Source of the DNA: a virus
Taxonomy: Duplodnaviria; Caudoviricetes
IMG/VR virus record: IMGVR_UViG_3300005077_000065
Coordinates: 1-34,383 of that record
DNA length: 34,383 nucleotides
Reading direction: 5' to 3' (one strand)
The position numbers and the translations under genes were made by a program. Positions 2,818-34,383 of the stretch are shown in pieces. Each line of letters opens with the position of its first letter. The first letter of the stretch is position 1. Below the pieces are notes generated by a model. That model was not told the DNA's origin, did not search any database, and saw only the letters and a program-made list of their open reading frames with translations.

Positions 2818-3033
2818 TTATTAATTGGAGTTAATAATAAATTCTAAAACAGGTTGTACCCTTTGAAATTACCAACTACAGCAACTTTAAAACTTTTTAT
2901 TAACAGCCTACAAATTATCTAAATCAATTACAAACCAATAGGTTTATAAAGTTCAGTTAAATCAGAACGCTTATACACAAACATTCCAAGGTAACTTCTT
3001 TTTTTTTATTTTATTAACAACTCCAATTAATAA
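2818..3033. repeat. AT-rich non-coding segment bounded by 24-bp imperfect inverted repeats
   Basis: TTATTAATTGGAGTTaaTAATAAA (2818-2841) vs TTTATTAacAACTCCAATTAATAA (3010-3033), 22/24. Confidence 0.85.
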
Positions 3034-13280: not shown

Positions 13281-13403
13281 CTTATTTGCCTCCGTATGTT
13301 TGTCTTAAAATATCATTTATTTCTTCTTTGAATGGTAGTTCTTCATCAACCAATATCGCACTCCTAAGGATGTCTTTGGATGGATATATGTTTATGATTT
13401 CAT

Positions 13404-13734
13404 AATTCGTGCCAAAGGATACCTATGACTTTAGTCATGGGAGGAATTTGGCTTCACCTCGTTTAGTTTACAATCTAGTTCACTACATCTTGTTACAGAT
13501 GAGATTGAACCATCTATATTTTGTATTCCTATCCATCTTTCTACATGAGTTCTTCTTCCTTGTTTAAAAGGTGGATGTTTAGATAATAACTTAATCACAG
13601 TTGTTGCACAAAAAGGACATATTGCATTACTTGTTCTGCAAAACATTCTCTTACAATTCCGACATATAATATATTCAGCCATTCTTCTTACCTATGTTGG
13701 AAACTCCACTCTTTAGAGTGTTAGAGGATGTCAT
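13404..13734 (+). mobile_element. Non-autonomous IS200/IS605-type element carrying one passenger gene
   Basis: Target TCAT 13400-13403; LE guide GATA 13418-13421 + hairpin 13422-13441; RE guide GAAA 13700-13703 + hairpin 13704-13726 + GATG-TCAT; both hairpins centred on CTTTAG; no tnpA/tnpB. Confidence 0.75.
13431..13682 (-). CDS. Passenger gene: small Cys-rich (Zn-ribbon-like) protein, 83 aa
   Basis: CRNC...CPFC; AGGT RBS; stop TAA lies in the LE hairpin loop (..NSSHD*). Confidence 0.65.
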   Translation of the reverse strand: MAEYIICRNCKRMFCRTSNAICPFCATTVIKLLSKHPPFKQGRRTHVERWIGIQNIDGSISSVTRCSELDCKLNEVKPNSSHD

Positions 13735-13952
13735 TTTATTAACCCCTGTAATTCAATTAGAGTCTCCATCTTTTTTTGCAGACAATACACAGTCACATAA
13801 AATTGATTATTTATTTCTGCATCTTTTGTTTTTAATTCCCAAAACTTTGTCAAACTGCGTAGATACTCTTCTTTTGTTTTCTTAGTCTTCAGATTATTTA
13901 AATAGCATTCTAAAGCGATATCACGCAACATTTGTTTTTGGTATTGATTCAT
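13731..13952 (-). CDS. Hypothetical protein (73 aa) on co-inserted foreign fragment
   Basis: Starts at ATGA overlap with a 5'-truncated ORF (..MMAEKELGL*); its TGA stop is supplied by the element's terminal TCAT. Confidence 0.55.
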   Translation of the reverse strand: MNQYQKQMLRDIALECYLNNLKTKKTKEEYLRSLTKFWELKTKDAEINNQFYVTVYCLQKKMETLIELQGLIK

Positions 13953-23269: not shown

Positions 23270-23896
23270 TTAAACCTCTGTAAACATTATGATAGTGCGG
23301 CAGTTCGGGTGAAATGGCGGCGCATCGCCTTGGAATGTTTTGTTTCTTACCTTTACTGTAAACAGCTTATCAAGCGGTATCGCTTGCTCTGGCGTTCCAT
23401 ACTTTTTATGTTCTGCCATGCAGATGTCGCTGGTTCGCTGGTCTACACTTACATCAAGGTATTTTTTAAGCTTCAGCCCGCTTTGTTTTGCACCATCAAG
23501 CTGACCATAGTTGCCGGCCCGGTTGCCTTCAGTTCTTATTACTGTCTTAAGCCGGTTCATGTATTTTTGGTCTTTGAATACTTGTTTGACCCTTTGCTTA
23601 AGTTGTTTTAAATCAACACCATCAAGCTGTGCCCTTTGTATCTCTTGCCGTAGGCTTTGGTTAATTTCTTCGGCTGTGTTACCAACATTCCCAGCAACAT
23701 ATTGCCTTAGATTATTTAGGTTTTGGTCATCCCTTGTAAAGTTTATTTGAAATAAATCTTCGGCTTTAATCAGCCCTTCATCATACTTTTTTTGAACATA
23801 ATTATCAAGCTTTTCTTGGAAAAATGTGGCAGTAAAAACTTTCATAAAGCCTCTCAGTAGTGCCTCTATTATGTTTTTTGCTTCGACATCTTTCAT
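23270..23896 (-). CDS. Minor head morphogenesis protein (Mu gpF / SPP1 gp7 family)
   Basis: IRTEGNRA..N.G, DQRTSDIC, PPFHPNCR. Confidence 0.9.
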   Translation of the reverse strand: MKDVEAKNIIEALLRGFMKVFTATFFQEKLDNYVQKKYDEGLIKAEDLFQINFTRDDQNLNNLRQYVAGNVGNTAEEINQSLRQEIQRAQLDGVDLKQLKQRVKQVFKDQKYMNRLKTVIRTEGNRAGNYGQLDGAKQSGLKLKKYLDVSVDQRTSDICMAEHKKYGTPEQAIPLDKLFTVKVRNKTFQGDAPPFHPNCRTIIMFTEV

Positions 23897-26229
23897 TTTT
23901 CAAAATCGCTTAGTTTATCTATTTCTTGTAAAAGAGTCTTTTCAACCGCATCAACATAACTTTCCATTTCTGTTTCGAGTGTTTTTTCTTCACTCTTATT
24001 TTTTTTCTCAACTTTGATTTCATCTTTTATTTGCTTGGCTTGCTTTATTGCATTCATCACATCTTCTTTGCTATTATCCCCTTGGGCATAACCAAGCAAT
24101 ACATCGCTTAGTTCAAAGTGCAGCTGCCTTTCTTCTGCGGTTTTTGGGTTTCCGATAATTTTTGAAGTGATTGCTTCTGTTATTCCCTGCAAGTCTGATG
24201 TGTCTACTTTATCCATAAGGCTTGGCAGTTCATCTATTCTGGATTGAGTATCTTCATCAATTACTTTGCCCTTAGAAGTATCATCTCTTGTTTCATTTTT
24301 TTGTTTTCTTAAAACTTGTTTTGCAGCCCAATCTGCAGCATCTGCCGTTGATATTCCTTGCCCTTTTGCATACCTAAAATAATCATTATAGTCTGCATCA
24401 TCGGGTAATTGGTGTGGTTTAATTGCAGTAGAACTTTCCTTTTTTGAAGATTCTGGTTTTTTAGATGACTCCAATAAAGATGGGTCTTTATTTATGGCAG
24501 ATATCACCTTCAACTTATCACTCATGGTTAATCCTAACCACGATGGGCCAGATGTAACCCCAACCGATTCTAAAAAGTTTTTCCTTTGTTCATTTGAAGC
24601 GGCAGAATATACAATTCTTGCTTCCCTTTCACTGATATATCTCTTTTTTGGAGCTGCATCTTCTTGGTATTTATACTGATAATTGCCAGATGAACCTGTA
24701 CGGCTGATATATTTGTGTTTTGTTTCCGTCTTTTTATCAAGATTAATATACTCATATTGGTTGGATTGATTAAATCCTTGATTTTCCATATTTGACTGGG
24801 CCAACTCTGATTGCCGCATTTTGCTTTCCATCAGTTCATCAACATTGATGCCAAGTTCTTTTGCAGCCATTTCCGGTGTTAAAACGCCCATATTAATCTG
24901 CTTCTCAATCAACTCATGCTTCCTAAAGTCCTCTTCAATGTCGTAATAGTTAAAAGTGAACTCCAGCGGGCAATCGGAATAGTCGATGTTGCCAAAGAAC
25001 TCTGTCATTATTTGCGTGTTAATATGATACTCAATAAGCTTTAATATTGGCCTTAGCGCTTTTCTTTTCACAACCTTTGCAGCTTCATGTGCTACGGCCC
25101 GGTTGCTGTTTTCAGTAAAGCCCATCTCCTCTGGTGTTACGCCAAAGCTTGCCATGAGAACTTTAAAGAACCATTCTTGTTGGCTTATTATCTCAAGGTC
25201 TTTGCTCATAATCTGGAATGGCGTAAACTTGACTTCTTGGCTGCTTATAGGAAATTTAAAAAAGCTTTTTCGCTTCACGCCAAACTCGTCTGTTTCCTTA
25301 AACTGATTTTCAAAGTTTGCCCTAAAATTTGATATTTGTGTTCTGTCGGCCCCGGTCAATGTAATTGCGCCTTCTGGCATGTTGTTGTTAGCGTAAAATC
25401 CAAGATTATATTTAGAACCATAAACAAGCGTTAATATCATACTTTCAAGAACCTCAATCACTGCTCTACCATATATGGAATCTGGGCGGGGGTTAGAAAT
25501 TATGTAGACTATTTCTCTTTTCCCAAATGGCACTGGCATGCTGCCGGCTGTCCAACCATACTGGAAATAAGCGGCCCTTGGGCTTATCGCTGTATCGTAC
25601 AAGTTTCTTAATTGGTCTGCGTTCTGGTAATTTGGTTTGGTTACATTGTCAGAATACATAAGATTTGGATTAATCGGCGCAACAAAATCATCTCTGTTTT
25701 CTATGCTGCCAAACTGGTCTGGGTTCTTTAGAAATGTTGCGCCATCTCTGGCATATATCTGGCTTAGTTCGCCTTTGCGGTTAAACACCTTGACAATTAC
25801 GCCTGCATCAATCTCAAGGATGCCGGTTATAAGCGCCCTTAGAATAAAACCCAAGCTTTCATCGTTGCCGTTTGGATTATTAAAAAATTTCCTAATCTCT
25901 TTAATTTTTTGCTGATAATCAACGCCATCATCTTGGTACTCATCTTTTACTTGAATATTCCAGTCTACTGCGCTTGCTTCATCGCATAAGGTTTTTATTA
26001 TTGAGAACACATAAGGGGTTTTTGCAAGCAACTTTATGTAAGGCAGATTTGTTTTTCTTGGATAACCATATGGCGGCTTGTAAAGAAATTCTGGAATATA
26101 TGCTTTAAATATGTCAAAACTTTCAAATGGTTTATCAATACTTCTTCCTGCTGTGTCAAATAATGCTGTGCTGTTAGCTTGGTCTTGCGGCTGTTGTCTT
26201 TTTAGCCCTATTCTTTCTAAGATTCCCAT
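23893..26229 (-). CDS. Portal protein with C-terminal inserted cargo region (778 aa)
   Basis: FFNNPN, YGRAVIE, FYANNNMPEG, FGVTPEEMG, LRPILKLIEYHIN; start moved to MGILERIG (26229). Confidence 0.9.
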   Translation of the reverse strand: MGILERIGLKRQQPQDQANSTALFDTAGRSIDKPFESFDIFKAYIPEFLYKPPYGYPRKTNLPYIKLLAKTPYVFSIIKTLCDEASAVDWNIQVKDEYQDDGVDYQQKIKEIRKFFNNPNGNDESLGFILRALITGILEIDAGVIVKVFNRKGELSQIYARDGATFLKNPDQFGSIENRDDFVAPINPNLMYSDNVTKPNYQNADQLRNLYDTAISPRAAYFQYGWTAGSMPVPFGKREIVYIISNPRPDSIYGRAVIEVLESMILTLVYGSKYNLGFYANNNMPEGAITLTGADRTQISNFRANFENQFKETDEFGVKRKSFFKFPISSQEVKFTPFQIMSKDLEIISQQEWFFKVLMASFGVTPEEMGFTENSNRAVAHEAAKVVKRKALRPILKLIEYHINTQIMTEFFGNIDYSDCPLEFTFNYYDIEEDFRKHELIEKQINMGVLTPEMAAKELGINVDELMESKMRQSELAQSNMENQGFNQSNQYEYINLDKKTETKHKYISRTGSSGNYQYKYQEDAAPKKRYISEREARIVYSAASNEQRKNFLESVGVTSGPSWLGLTMSDKLKVISAINKDPSLLESSKKPESSKKESSTAIKPHQLPDDADYNDYFRYAKGQGISTADAADWAAKQVLRKQKNETRDDTSKGKVIDEDTQSRIDELPSLMDKVDTSDLQGITEAITSKIIGNPKTAEERQLHFELSDVLLGYAQGDNSKEDVMNAIKQAKQIKDEIKVEKKNKSEEKTLETEMESYVDAVEKTLLQEIDKLSDFEK

Positions 26230-26239
26230 GATAATAAAG

Positions 26240-26285
26240 GCATGCGCTGCAATGGGAGAGTGAGGCCCATTTGCAACGGTCATGC
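26240..26285 (-). other. Hairpin in portal leader, loop CCUCACUCU
   Basis: Long stem with G-U on the minus strand; shares GGGAGAGTGAGG (+) with 32569-32580. Confidence 0.55.
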
Positions 26286-26989: not shown

Positions 26990-28389
26990 GTGTCGGCAAA
27001 CTCCATATAAAACTGCCCTTGCTCTTCCCAGACTGCATAAACAAGGCTGTCTGCAAAGTCTGGGCTTAGCCTTTCCCAGTCACTTATTTTTATCTTTGCA
27101 TTGCTTGTCAGTTCCCATTTCATTTTGCTTAGGTCACTGAAGAGTTTATTTATGCAATCTTTCTTGTCAGTTGTTATGCTTATCTTGTTTGTTTCAAACA
27201 TTTTTTTAAGTCTGAAAAACTGTTCGGCTTTTTTGTTCTGGTAATTAAAGGCCCTTTGCTTCTTGCCATAATCCTTCCTACGGCCAATAAAATCTGTTTG
27301 GGTATATTCCTTGCTCGGAGATTGCCCAAAATGCGCAGCAAATACAGGAAACTCATCTTCATAAAGCCGGTCATAAACACCGCTGCCAAGCCCTATAACA
27401 TCAATATTAATTTTATCAAAGTCTATCAATGCATGGAGTTCTTTTATCTTGCCCACTGTTTGCATCGTGTCTTTCTTTTCTGTGAACCATATATCTTTAA
27501 TTTCAACATTATGGCCATCGTCAATCTCAACATAGGTAAACACGGTTTTATCGCTGCCAAACCGTGCAACATCTACGCCTAATACTCTTCGCCCAGTGAC
27601 CTGTTTATCATTTTCCCTTGCTGCCTGCAATTCTTCAAGTGTGAATAAACTATCTTCATCTTCATCCGGAAACTCTGCGCAGTACCATACTTTAAACTCA
27701 ATCTCCGTCAGTTCGGCCCTTATATACTGCACTTCCTTTTCATTCATTATGCCTTCTTCAACGGCTTTTGTATAAGGCACTTGATAAATCTTAAAAGCGC
27801 CGGACTGGAAACTTTCCTTGAAATGGTTGGCCTTGTGCGGCGTGCCAAGTTCAATTAGTATGGCCTGCCGTTCTGCGCTGGCAAGCATCCTCAATATTTT
27901 TGTCTTATATATGTCATCTTCTACTTCTTCGCTTTCATCAATTATAATCACTGTGCCGCCAAACCCAAGCACCTGCGCTCCTTTTCTTGCACCGCCAACT
28001 GAAAGGCAGTGTATCTTTGAACCGTTCTTAAAATTGATTTCTTGGTTGCTAAACTCATTACGCATGTCAATCTGTAAATGCACTTCTTCTGAATCAAAGC
28101 AATGATTTCTTATTTTTTTAAACACAATTTGGCTCTGGTTCCATGTTGGGCTTATTACTTGTATCTGTTCACCATCATATAATAAAGCAAGAAGTATTGC
28201 AGCAATACTTGTGATTTCACTTTTGCCGGCCCTTGTGCTTGCAACAAACAAATATTTATCGTGCTTCTTTAAGATTATATCTCTTATAAATTCCTGCTGG
28301 TAACTGGTGCAGATAAAAGGTTTATTTGCAACTGTTAGAAACAGCTTTTTTATCAATATTCTTGGGTTTTCTAATATAGTTCTTAACAA
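26986..28389 (-). CDS. terL: Terminase large subunit
   Basis: Walker A STRAGKS, Walker B IIIDE, LGTP, nuclease LGVDVARFGSDKT and SPDFADSL. Confidence 0.95.
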   Translation of the reverse strand: MLRTILENPRILIKKLFLTVANKPFICTSYQQEFIRDIILKKHDKYLFVASTRAGKSEITSIAAILLALLYDGEQIQVISPTWNQSQIVFKKIRNHCFDSEEVHLQIDMRNEFSNQEINFKNGSKIHCLSVGGARKGAQVLGFGGTVIIIDESEEVEDDIYKTKILRMLASAERQAILIELGTPHKANHFKESFQSGAFKIYQVPYTKAVEEGIMNEKEVQYIRAELTEIEFKVWYCAEFPDEDEDSLFTLEELQAARENDKQVTGRRVLGVDVARFGSDKTVFTYVEIDDGHNVEIKDIWFTEKKDTMQTVGKIKELHALIDFDKINIDVIGLGSGVYDRLYEDEFPVFAAHFGQSPSKEYTQTDFIGRRKDYGKKQRAFNYQNKKAEQFFRLKKMFETNKISITTDKKDCINKLFSDLSKMKWELTSNAKIKISDWERLSPDFADSLVYAVWEEQGQFYMEFADT

Positions 28390-28445
28390 TTTAGGCCTCT
28401 TTCTTTAATTCTATATATTGTTATTAAAAATTTTGACCTTTTTCT

Positions 28446-28892
28446 TTAATTCTTTGTATCATTATTAACAATTTCAATCTCTTTCTTTAATTCTGACCAT
28501 AAATTGACCTTTATTTCCGTATCTGGCTGTGAATCAATTATCTTTAACTTACTCAAAATGTCTATTCGCATTTTATCGCTTTCTTCAAGCTTCTTTAATA
28601 TGCCCAATACTATGTGCTGCTGTTTGTTTATCTTGTCCCTTTTTTGTAAATCTGCCAGCATTCCAAGCGCCACATTCTGCCGTAACTTTGCGTTCTGTAT
28701 TATCTCATGCGCAATATTTTTGCTGTTCACTGTTTTTAAGTCTTCAGATACAATGTAATCTATGTCATTATATACTTGGCTTTTCTTTAGATTGTACTTT
28801 TCCATCAACTGCTCATGTGTAAGTTTATGGATATCATTACGCATTGCAGCCATTCTTGCTAACCGTTTACTGGATATTCCGAACCCCATCAT
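28446..28892 (-). CDS. terS: Probable terminase small subunit
   Basis: N-terminal HTH (THEQLMEKYNLKKSQVYNDI) directly upstream of terL. Confidence 0.65.
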   Translation of the reverse strand: MMGFGISSKRLARMAAMRNDIHKLTHEQLMEKYNLKKSQVYNDIDYIVSEDLKTVNSKNIAHEIIQNAKLRQNVALGMLADLQKRDKINKQQHIVLGILKKLEESDKMRIDILSKLKIIDSQPDTEIKVNLWSELKKEIEIVNNDTKN

Positions 28893-30337
28893 TCCTCCAA
28901 GGTTTCCGAATCGCCTGTAATAGTCCAGAATGGCGTATTCTTTGGTTTTCTGCGTTTTAAACCAACATATTTGTAGAATACTTGGTTGTTTTCAATCTTT
29001 GCTGGTACTACTGCACCTTGGAAATAATTAAGCGGGCTTCTTTCTTTTTCAACCTCGTTCCATACTTCTTCCAACTTATCTCTCCAAGTAACATGCCTAT
29101 GAATGTATGCTGCTTGCGGGCCTGCTCCGGGATTGACTAAGTTATGCACCAAACTTACATCAGCCCATTCTGGAATAACATCATCTGGCCCTATTAGCTT
29201 ACCGGTATTTTTTGCTTGTAATAGCGCTTCGGTTGCGTTCTTTCTTTGCCAGTTGCCAAACACTGGGTCATCTGGACTTATTGCGCAGCAACAGCCAAAG
29301 TCAGTTAATTGTTTCCAACAGGGGTCACTTACACCTATGTTCATGCCTCTTTTCTTTGCGTGTTTGTGTATTGCGTGCATAATTTGCTCTGTCCATGTAT
29401 GGGCCGGCCTTGTGCATGCCTGTACCTTTCCAAAGCTTTTGTATATCTTGCTAAGAGGTTTACAGCTGATTCTTTCTATTTCCTTCCACTTTCTTTTAAT
29501 GTCTTTGGTCATCATCCCGGGTAGGAAGGCCACTTCATAACTTAGGTTGCGGCAACCTGCGTCTGCTGCCATGTCAAGTAAATCTCTCCATGCGTATGGA
29601 TGCTTTACCGTTGCGTCACTTATGCCGGGTATTATTGGCCTAAATCTTAAACAGGTTGTAACGCCTATATCTTCAAGGTTCTTCATACATTGTATTCTTT
29701 CGCTTGTTGGTGGTGCTCTTTTATCAATTTGCATTAATACATCATCATCAGCGCTTATGATGCTAAAATGTACCCTAAACAAATGTGGTTTATCTCTTAC
29801 TGCATCTAAGTACTCTTTTTCTAAGAATAAGTTGCCTTTTGTGCTGATTCTCACCGGTTGGTTGTACTTTTTAACCAATTCTGCAAACTTTAAGAACCAG
29901 CCTTGTTGTCTTTCTATATTATCAAGCGGGTCTGTTAATGCACCAAGCTGTATAGGTGCTGGGTAACCATTTTTATTCCTTGCGTTGTACCTTAATGCTT
30001 TTCTAAAGATTTCGTTTGTTTTGCCTTCTTTACCGCTGAATATGCTTTCCAAGCTGTTTATATTTAACTGGCCAATCTCTCTATCGTGTTGTTCCCTTTT
30101 TTGCACAAGGTTTGGGGCAAAACAATAAAGGCAACCGAAAGAACAAACTGAATGGCTATCTATGCTTACTGGCAGCGCACAATCAAAGCCATCGCTTGTG
30201 AATCTTATACCGTTATAGTTCCTTAGCTGCTTTTTCGCTGGTTTGCATGCTGTTGCTGTGCCGCATGTTGCTTTATGGTTCATACACTCTTTGCATGTGG
30301 CAACAGTTTTGCATCTTAGTTCATTTTCTTTTAGCAT
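28889..30337 (-). CDS. Radical SAM protein (spore photoproduct lyase-like)
   Basis: CSFGCLYCFA (CxxxCxxC), GALTDP, ISTKG, APPTSERI, RFRPIIPG. Confidence 0.85.
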   Translation of the reverse strand: MLKENELRCKTVATCKECMNHKATCGTATACKPAKKQLRNYNGIRFTSDGFDCALPVSIDSHSVCSFGCLYCFAPNLVQKREQHDREIGQLNINSLESIFSGKEGKTNEIFRKALRYNARNKNGYPAPIQLGALTDPLDNIERQQGWFLKFAELVKKYNQPVRISTKGNLFLEKEYLDAVRDKPHLFRVHFSIISADDDVLMQIDKRAPPTSERIQCMKNLEDIGVTTCLRFRPIIPGISDATVKHPYAWRDLLDMAADAGCRNLSYEVAFLPGMMTKDIKRKWKEIERISCKPLSKIYKSFGKVQACTRPAHTWTEQIMHAIHKHAKKRGMNIGVSDPCWKQLTDFGCCCAISPDDPVFGNWQRKNATEALLQAKNTGKLIGPDDVIPEWADVSLVHNLVNPGAGPQAAYIHRHVTWRDKLEEVWNEVEKERSPLNYFQGAVVPAKIENNQVFYKYVGLKRRKPKNTPFWTITGDSETLEE

Positions 30338-30956
30338 TTTCCATTATAAGGTTGTAAAAGAAAGTGGGGTCAAGTTCATGCGTGCTTTTGCCTTTGAATT
30401 TATCTTCTAATACTTTGCAAAGCTGTTCAAACTTTTTATCTTCTTGGTAATATTCGATATAAAACCAGTTCTGGTTCTTTGTACTCATGCCTTTTGTGTT
30501 ACTGTATTCATCTACTATGTTATCAAATGTGCCCCTTTTGTAAGCGTTGTCTATGAATAAGATTAGTTCATTGAGTTCGTCTTGGTTGTACCCGCTTAGA
30601 TTAACCAGTTCAACATCTATATCTTGCAATTCTGTTAATACTTCATGCAACTTTTGTTCATCCCACTGGCCGCTTATCTTATTTAATGCTATGTTTAAAC
30701 TTTTTTCTTTTTCAAGCGGCATGTCTACTTCAACTACCGGTACTTCTTCAATCTTGAGCGCTTTTAATGCTTTCAACCTTTGGTTCCCGCCTACGGTGTT
30801 CCCTGTTTGCTTGTTGTAAATAATAGGTTCTACATAACCAAATTTATTTATACTGTTCTTTAGCTTATTTAATTCCGCATCAGAAATAGTCCTTGGATTG
30901 TACGGCGCTTCTTTTAATTGACTTACTTTAATCTTTTTTATTTCTATGTTAATCAC
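30321..30956 (-). CDS. ParB/Sulfiredoxin N-terminal domain protein
   Basis: YNPRTIS..LKNSINKFGYVEPII..GGNQRL..NIALNKISG.WD. Confidence 0.9.
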   Translation of the reverse strand: MINIEIKKIKVSQLKEAPYNPRTISDAELNKLKNSINKFGYVEPIIYNKQTGNTVGGNQRLKALKALKIEEVPVVEVDMPLEKEKSLNIALNKISGQWDEQKLHEVLTELQDIDVELVNLSGYNQDELNELILFIDNAYKRGTFDNIVDEYSNTKGMSTKNQNWFYIEYYQEDKKFEQLCKVLEDKFKGKSTHELDPTFFYNLIMENAKRK

Positions 30957-33799: not shown

Positions 33800-33977
33800 T
33801 TTTCCTCTTTTTCAATTCATCCATAAGCCGTATTATGTGGTCATCTTTTTTGGCACACAATTCCACCAGTATATCTCTTATTCTTTTTAGATATAAGGCC
33901 CGCATATTGCCCCAATTGTATTCTTTTCCTGCGATTTCATTTATCTGCTGCATGAGTTCTTTTCTTGTTTCGGTCAT
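33792..33977 (-). CDS. Hypothetical protein (61 aa)
   Basis: ATGA overlap, ORF track. Confidence 0.55.
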   Translation of the reverse strand: MTETRKELMQQINEIAGKEYNWGNMRALYLKRIRDILVELCAKKDDHIIRLMDELKKRKNV

Positions 33978-34288
33978 TTTATCTGCACCCAGAACTTTTT
34001 ATGCAATATTTTTTGTTCATCAAAAGGGGGTATTGTGTTTTTGAAATATACCCCATGCGCAATCCATTCTGATACTTTTGTTTCGTAAACTTTCTGTATG
34101 TCACCGTTCTTGTAATCAATATAAATATATTCCACATTCAAGTTTTCTAAATAGTCCAGCGCTTTTATATTCATGCCAAAACCTTGAAACTTGAAAAAGA
34201 AATGCTTTTTTGCATCTCTAAAAATAACTAAGGTATTATCATCCCGCAGCTTGCCAATCAATTTTTCTTGTAGATATAATTCTTTCAT
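33974..34288 (-). CDS. Hypothetical protein (104 aa)
   Basis: ORF track; its ATGA start is the target tetranucleotide of the adjacent element. Confidence 0.7.
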   Translation of the reverse strand: MKELYLQEKLIGKLRDDNTLVIFRDAKKHFFFKFQGFGMNIKALDYLENLNVEYIYIDYKNGDIQKVYETKVSEWIAHGVYFKNTIPPFDEQKILHKKFWVQIK

Positions 34289-34383
34289 AAAAATGTGTCA
34301 AGGATACTCAAGACTTTAGTCTTGAGAGGAATTGACACTCACCTCTTTCTTGTTGATTACTTTACAAAATAATTGATTTAGTG
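34289..34383 (+). mobile_element. Left end of a second IS200/IS605-type passenger element (runs off window)
   Basis: TCAT 34285-34288; GATA at +15..+18; hairpin CTCAAGACT-TT-AGTCTTGAG; AGGAATT; outer stem GTGTCAA/TTGACAC; minus-strand ORF ending ..EVSVNSSQD* in the loop. Confidence 0.7.

Follow-up and report, generated by a model that had tools for sequence, protein, structure and literature searches.

The window, that is the whole stretch of DNA that was analysed, is a virus record of 34,383 bases, classed as linear and about 90% complete. Positions 13404-13734 are occupied by a unit of 331 bases composed of a left end (LE) of the IS200/IS605 type, an 83-aa ORF on the bottom strand and a right end (RE), both cuts reading TCAT. 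Among the genes of the record are those for terminase, portal, capsid and tail tube, nearly all on the bottom strand; TnpA, TnpB and IscB were found nowhere in the 34,383-base contig. A Nanobdellota (DPANN) archaeon is considered the likely host, because in the phylum to which Woesearchaeota belong 3 of 401 sampled genomes have relatives of the capsid protein (50-55%), against 0 of 401 in Patescibacteria; the tail tube was not found in the three genomes having capsid relatives, and comparison with cultured phages gave no match. Several side features of the genome can be mentioned. A 50-nt inverted repeat (2818-2867 and 2984-3033, 76%, with 116 nt between the arms) lies in a non-coding gap and is a possible origin or regulatory region. 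The 796-aa portal protein (23893-26283) has a long charged C-terminal extension past about residue 500 with the motif KYISRTGSSGNYQYKY, Pfam coverage being restricted to residues 92-471. Three 41-nt tandem-like repeats (28374-28496) run from the end of a 148-aa ORF into the beginning of the gene for the large terminase subunit, and a radical SAM gene beside a ParB-N gene (28889-30956), just before the terminase genes, may be a DNA-modification or packaging module.

On the top strand the unit is preceded by the left cleavage and target tetramer TCAT (13400-13403), which belongs to the flank and reads ATGA on the coding strand. The LE (13404-13462), recognised by its fold, a profile match and covariation, comprises an outer stem (13411-13416 with 13447-13452), the guide GATA (13418-13421, +15..+18) and a hairpin with a TTTA loop and AG at its 3' foot (13422-13441). 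The RE (13700-13734), recognised by fold and profile, opens with the guide GAAA (13700-13703, -35..-32), continues as an imperfect hairpin with a TTTA loop and closes with a terminal TCAT (13731-13734), its AG foot lying 10 nt before the cut. Both guides and both tetramers are present as the initial annotation had described them. The unit has subterminal imperfect hairpins at both ends and no terminal inverted repeats. Folded alone, the LE gave a z score of -2.3, with 5 of 200 shuffles as good; the RE fold was no better than shuffles (z 0.25; 118/200 as good), so that the ends owe their significance to membership in a family. Profiles made from 134 LE and 27 RE sequences of other loci, the 34,383-base window being left out, gave E 1e-16 for the LE and E 8e-9 for the RE.

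The closest point of reference for such ends is IS608, among whose guide pairs is g4-c4, consistent with the GR/CR of that element. The pairs g1-c2 and g2-c1 are given in the available text of PMC3201880, together with an AG foot of the RE at 10 nt from its cut, as in the unit, and an LE foot at 19 nt, which in the unit is found at 18 nt. Both pairs of guide and cut at the unit (GATA/TCAT and GAAA/TCAT) fit the guide rule, and the unit shares with IS608 the subterminal hairpins, the 4-nt guides 5' of the hairpins, a left cut outside and a right cut inside. It differs from IS608 in having neither tnpA nor tnpB, in carrying one bottom-strand passenger ORF, in having identical left and right cuts (TCAT) and in an LE with an extra covarying outer stem and a Shine-Dalgarno (SD) motif.

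The 83-aa cargo ORF (13431-13682, bottom strand) has a CxxC-x11-CxxC pattern at its N-terminus and ends, as had been claimed, with a TAA stop within the LE hairpin loop, so that its last about 11 residues are encoded by the LE. It makes up 94% of the unit interior, and the gap between the cargo start and the RE end is only 52 nt. The RBS of its own that had been ascribed to this ORF does exist, as AGGT 7 nt before the ATG, but it is weak. No Pfam or PHROG match and no viral relatives were found for the protein, the Atlas yielded a model of low confidence and leads all of which lay below 0.9, and no Rfam family was found near the unit at E<=1. The one homologue, P0002, aligns with the C-terminal 57 aa. 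Since it resembles the RE-encoded frame at its N-terminus and the LE tail at its C-terminus, it probably represents a sister unit whose gene codes for 52 aa. In comparison to P0002 the 83-aa ORF has about 31 additional Cys-rich residues in front which, judging from the protein letters, are perhaps a second mini-gene fused on.

From the ATG of the RE cut site a 19-codon frame runs through the RE on the bottom strand (13675-13734) and stops 5 nt past the cargo start, a position from which it may couple translation to the cargo. The upstream 73-aa ORF (13731-13952, bottom strand), which has no viral relative among those searched, receives its TGA stop from the RE terminal tetramer. On the other side an SD-like GAGGTG borne by the LE (13455-13460, bottom strand) faces the target ATG across the LE hairpin and would serve it as a translation signal. 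It had been proposed that insertion restores the upstream TGA and keeps the downstream ATG; the first part is borne out, but in the downstream flank (13282-13403, bottom strand) the ATG opens just three codons (Met-Lys-Ser-stop). A start-less frame of 39 codons (13282-13401), one register off the target ATG, reaches the tail-tube RBS and is possibly a frameshifted small gene, for which no homologue was found.

The contig breaks off within a second element of the same type, which the initial annotation had not mentioned. The final 99 bases (34285-34383, top strand) begin exactly at TCAT (34285-34288) and consist of this tetramer, the LE (34289-34383 with 30-odd inner bases; profile E 2e-17 over 34285-34347) and nothing beyond, and the same TCAT is the start codon of a 104-aa ORF (33974-34288). 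The contig start (1-17, top strand) reads TCAT, which on the coding strand is preceded at 8 nt by GGAGG, an arrangement found at 8 places in the 34,383 bases. If the genome is circular, the contig start is likely the right junction of the second element, since such an arrangement is expected when a circular genome was broken within the element, which is possibly multi-copy or polymorphic.

The ends were found to belong to a wide family. An LE pattern without any TCAT requirement gave 47 viral loci, 34 of them non-redundant, and TCAT was located within 16 nt upstream of the LE in 32 of these 34 unselected sites as compared with 708 of 9595 background windows (L029 and L036 lack it); the same target was seen in 5/6 further genome loci. 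When TCATAA was required, 121 metagenome loci (41 of them with short flanks) and 12 genome loci were obtained, the metagenome scan covering 22 of 64 parts, from which about 350 loci are estimated, and 5 of the 12 genome loci belong to Woesearchaeota or Pacearchaeota. Altogether 160 non-redundant LE sites were collected, and an RE was callable at 66; the remainder are explained mostly by contig and flank limits, and some have RE variants or no RE. In 63 of the 66 elements the terminal tetramer is the one expected from the RE guide (3 mismatches): guides GAAA, GATA and GACA with TCAT in 30 elements, CAAG with TGAC in 16, AAAG with TTAC in 11, AAAA with TTAT in 5 and CAAA with TGAT in 1. This count is supportive and not blind, because the RE caller, which accepted T[TCG]A[CT] only and in a short window, preferred predicted tetramers. 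The foot dinucleotide tracks the RE guide as well, GA guides going with an AG foot in 30/31, the combination that the RE of IS608 also has. An independent scan starting from the RE gave 2 loci, each with an LE upstream, one holding a methyltransferase and TnpA and the other a single methyltransferase-like gene. The assignment to IS200/IS605 ends following the IS608 guide rule is thus supported by the unit and by the guides of its family. The expected boundary at TCAT in relatives holds on the LE side in nearly all cases, but RE cuts were also found at TTAC and TTAT, which likewise supply a stop. In one genome of the Nanobdellota phylum (G146) four LE copies are present (L198, L203, L204 and L205), two with tnpB and two as short derivatives, and one copy is preceded by TTAT, not TCAT.

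The same end type was found on IscB elements, on top-strand tnpB elements, on one divergent tnpA/tnpB element and on elements of the order LE-cargo-tnpA-RE, in which all genes are on the bottom strand. The Y1 TnpA that had been sought on elements with matching ends was in this way identified in sister elements: ten co-oriented TnpAs behind such LEs have the HUH motif DH[IL]HLF, nine of them with a tyrosine motif at the expected place, and the three that were scanned (L012, L104 and L125) were assigned to Pfam Y1_Tnp (PF01797). The TnpA element L192 has the RE type of the unit at 13404-13734, and the closest LE of any TnpA-bearing element is identical to that of the unit at 42 of 60 positions. 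Autonomous LE-cargo-tnpA arrangements are seen at L020, L066, L086, L121, L126, L181, L192 and L010, where the cargo overlaps the tnpA stop and is mostly DNA methyltransferase-like, in one case nuclease-like. Two loci in DPANN genomes (L200 and L201) have the same ends, a broken tnpA-like frame on the top strand and an RE with a GATA guide.

The same cargo with both ends occurs at unrelated flanks in two pairs of loci, L091/L105 and L038/L118; L091 and L105 differ at about 44% of synonymous sites, and this move is therefore old. In L097 and L160 unrelated cargo is found at the same ATG position with near-identical ends and RE inner sequence. The pair L057/L081 was rejected as a clean swap, as both ends are shared but the cargo N-termini are also alike. 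Tandem RE-TCAT|LE junctions were found at 3 of 156 LEs, and behind two of them a complete cassette is visible. In such arrays (L111, oriented -300..+700, L127 and L152) a further unit, or a tnpB element, is inserted at the TCAT that terminates the RE of a different cassette. Inside the cargo ATGA occurs 68 times against 114.6 expected, a count not reached by any of 200 codon shuffles, whereas native ORFs hold 475 against 440 expected, and cargo starting with ATGA is seen in 6/35 vs 143/317. This depletion is expected if a stray TCAT on the active strand spoils excision. Taken together, the tandem junctions and the depletion of ATGA in cargo support active cassettes. In the available text of 10.1101/2023.03.14.532601 TnpA is described to use alternative matching tetramers and to mobilise ends in trans.

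Other loci have a different appearance. An LE without an RE stands next to a gene at L085, L111 and L172, L112 and L122 have the same left flank and differ in cargo, RE and right flank, and in L121/L126 the element is common and the right flank differs. These arrangements show that the ends are apparently also reshuffled by recombination, and the flank swaps and solo LEs weaken the reconstructed empty sites. Empty ATGA sites in relatives, which the initial annotation had anticipated, were found for no unit by flank BLAST among the fetched loci. Five tail-tube relatives (43-48% identity), with 0-2 small unrelated ORFs before the tube gene, are too distant for an empty allele, and a search with the L037 flank gene returned only its source contig. 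The solo-LE genes, the L112/L122 pair and the lack of an empty site are what would be seen if the unit were no longer, or had never been, moved whole by TnpA, IS deletions having left an LE and an RE around a resident gene and the 35-60 nt ends serving as homology for module swaps between viruses; the imperfect RE at 13700-13734 and the original SD, which is rarer in right flanks (15/48) than at native ATGA starts (56/97), point the same way. We regard this explanation as unlikely nevertheless, since pure homology would not need guides, a triplet foot and cut tetramers that are matched in 63/66, the depletion of ATGA is confined to the cargo, the tandem junctions have precisely the form RE-TCAT|LE and the same cargo is met with both ends at unrelated flanks.

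The target was described from 28 reconstructed sites of elements that hold cargo or TnpA and for which the two ends and sufficient flank were available, drawn from 150 LE sites and taking in two gene-poor IscB-type minis. The tetramer is a start codon at 23 of these 28 sites and at 137 of 661 other ATGA; an upstream stop is present in 13/28 vs 53/661 and a true stop/start overlap in 11/28 vs 29/661. Among all non-IscB LEs the target ATG opens at least 40 codons in 92 of 121 cases vs 392 of 1175, and the start-codon bias is much weaker in gut IscB elements (7/13). The overlaps that had been listed in this genome (23893, 26986, 28889, 32036, 33327 and 33974) are all real, each being a TCAT where two bottom-strand ORFs share 4 nt. 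The proposal that such overlaps are the target is correct as far as their enrichment is concerned, but most sites are not overlaps, and ATGA start codons at large are the better description of the target, overlaps forming a minority subset. That the element would specifically select stop/start overlaps is very improbable: they are over-represented even among start-codon sites (11/23 vs 29/137, p about 0.01), but 12 of these 23 sites lie outside overlaps, a reading frame cannot be sensed by a guide of 4 nt, the downstream ATG at 13282-13403 is unproductive, and the overlap bias is explained by survival of harmless insertions. The start-codon bias itself is most simply explained by selection acting on a target of 4 nt.

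The ATGA target itself is already known from IS605/ISC elements. In the available text of PMC4810608 an N|ATGA target is published, with empty sites, for IS605B and ISC elements, and IS605B-1_MA, ISC1-1_MA and ISC2-1_HM share the target of the units on the opposite strand, whereas they carry tnpB or iscB and variable passenger genes are not described for them there; the term "start codon" has 0 occurrences in the main text of that paper. The same LE type is found on IscB and TnpB elements, and the cargo is placed and oriented like iscB.

The diversity of cargo was assessed in 37 non-redundant two-ended units without TnpA, TnpB or IscB, the unit at 13404-13734 included and three elements with an IscB-type RE left out. 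One ORF covers at least 70% of the interior in 37/37, taken as a descriptive count, and the ORF stops in the LE loop in 30 units, reads through to the target TGA in 3 and stops earlier in 4. When the LE tail is removed the 37 cargos form 34 sequence clusters, which agrees with the expectation of units with different cargo and an LE-encoded protein tail, and the further possibilities that the cargo would be constant or a tnpB remnant did not hold. Named cargos comprise adenine/N4 methyltransferases, YopX, DUF5131 and one PHROG annotated as topoisomerase, and most are without a family; pN/pS was 0.03 and 0.09 in the two cargo pairs tested, indicating purifying selection. Homologues of cargos exist without the flanking ends (L097, L085, L115 and L109). 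At L079/L080 two cassettes, one with an MT-A70 methyltransferase and one with a short ORF, lie about 1 kb apart with one native 78-aa gene between them. That the element has been internally deleted and the ORF, without any cargo function, is what remains of tnpB, iscB or tnpA or runs antisense to one of them, as might be thought from the TnpB and IscB elements of the same end type, the C-terminal Zn ribbon that TnpB possesses and an 83-aa cargo with no family match and one homologue, can hardly be upheld and for the family is largely refuted on sequence grounds, given that TnpB, IscB and TnpA profiles had no match at E<0.05 in six frames of the 37 interiors, that the cysteines are on the bottom strand and tnpB on the top, and that other cargos are the methyltransferases, YopX and DUF5131 under purifying selection.

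Translation signals were recognised in both ends. On the coding strand an SD-like motif adjoins the outer stem of the LE: it is present in 91/106 unclassified, 9/14 TnpA, 10/13 TnpB and 19/19 IscB elements, the background being 926/4480. The motif is part of the LE itself, because it is found in tnpB elements without a bottom-strand gene. Counted with the stem collapsed, the motif most often lies 7-9 nt from the target ATG, the mode for the record's own genes being 6-8, and hairpin-bridged RBSs are known from T4 genes. The outer stem covaries: own arms pair over 5.7 bp and swapped arms over 3.5, and a stem of at least 5 bp is formed by own arms in 109 of 126 cases vs at most 38 when swapped. 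The predicted accessibility of the LE SD has a median of 0.45 and exceeds 0.5 in 49/128. Its complement could pair instead with an invariant top-strand GAGG, and a DNA-level role of the motif is possible. At the other junction the frame opened by the RE ATG ends close to the cargo start, at -7..+5, in 17/23 units as against 5/46 other frames, a count whose effective sample is small because the RE sequences are related. Retention of the original SD in the right flank was also considered and did not hold (5/28 vs 128/661; 15/48 vs 56/97 native ATGA starts).

The unit is, in our judgement, probably a non-autonomous peel-and-paste cassette, mobilised in trans by a related Y1 TnpA, kept before a start codon and having its cargo swapped at RBS boundaries; both mobility and cargo capture we infer from the comparison of sequences. 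Points against this reading are that an empty allele was found for no unit, that the contig has no TnpA and the TnpA-bearing elements have LEs no nearer than 42 of 60, that the RE hairpin is imperfect, and that the downstream ATG at the unit is unproductive. According to this model the unit would be excised as a single-stranded circle by a Y1 TnpA from a related element and re-inserted 3' of TCAT, which on the coding strand would place the gene directly before an ATGA start codon. The RE tetramer would then give the upstream gene a stop (TGA or TAA), the short frame from the RE's ATG would hand ribosomes to the cargo, and the folded LE would bring its own SD to about 7-9 nt from the downstream ATG. 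TnpA cuts only the outer ends and therefore cannot itself load cargo; exchange would proceed by TnpA-independent recombination at short matches, from SD to SD at the 3' end and at the RBS/ATG at the 5' end. Such exchange would account for most cargos having lost a stop of their own and carrying an LE-encoded tail. Arrays would arise when a new unit inserts at the end of an old one, a growth made possible, as is proposed, because RE and target are both TCAT.

The units share subterminal hairpins, guides, a fixed target and a cognate Y1 TnpA on relatives with IS200/IS605 elements and are to be classed with them. TnpB or IscB with omega RNA, by which IS605, IS1341 and ISC elements are defined, was not found in the unit (no profile match and no Rfam family), and neither was the group I intron at the LE that is typical of an IStron, there being no Rfam match at E<=1 and an ORF that fills the interior. 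Integron cassettes are promoter-less single ORFs with tight boundaries, recognised as single-strand hairpins, passing through a circular intermediate and forming co-oriented arrays, and their cargo is mostly unknown or DNA-modifying. The units resemble them in having one ORF per unit, tight boundaries, co-oriented stacking and a cargo that is mostly unknown or DNA-modifying, and in the hairpin recognition on a single strand and the circular intermediate predicted for them, whereas they would depend on an HUH transposase where integrons use the IntI tyrosine recombinase, have two different ends in place of attC, and insert, with no attI or fixed platform, at any TCAT and mostly singly. The designation "integron-like" given in the initial annotation is thus apt for tandem stacking and varied cargo, but not for an attC/IntI platform: HUH-guide LE and RE were found, with dispersed single units and arrays at only 3/156. 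PATEs are gene-less non-autonomous IS200/IS605 derivatives that likewise consist of ends mobilised in trans, but they encode no protein and the units carry one intact, variable gene (available text of PMC4810608 and 10.1101/2023.03.14.532601). No description of cargo-carrying TnpA-less IS200/IS605 units was found in the literature covered, which took in few subscription papers, and the cargo-cassette form may have been described before. What the analysis adds is the breadth (34 cargo clusters), the junction statistics, the tandem arrays and the depletion of ATGA.

A broader proposal, which we advance tentatively, is that the units form an HUH-based analogue of integrons in viruses of Nanobdellota (DPANN), with capture of single genes at RBS boundaries, TnpA acting in trans on ATGA, arrays, and translation re-wired at both junctions. 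If true, it would be a natural scar-free device adding one gene to an operon, and the ends, of about 100 nt, would provide a minimal natural design for the insertion of a gene into an operon without polarity. The signals described above suggest that IS200/IS605 ends have been shaped by translation of the opposite strand. For the viruses themselves, such cassettes are a possible route for shuffling short accessory genes and DNA methyltransferases in tightly packed operons, and may thereby address a gap in phage mosaicism.
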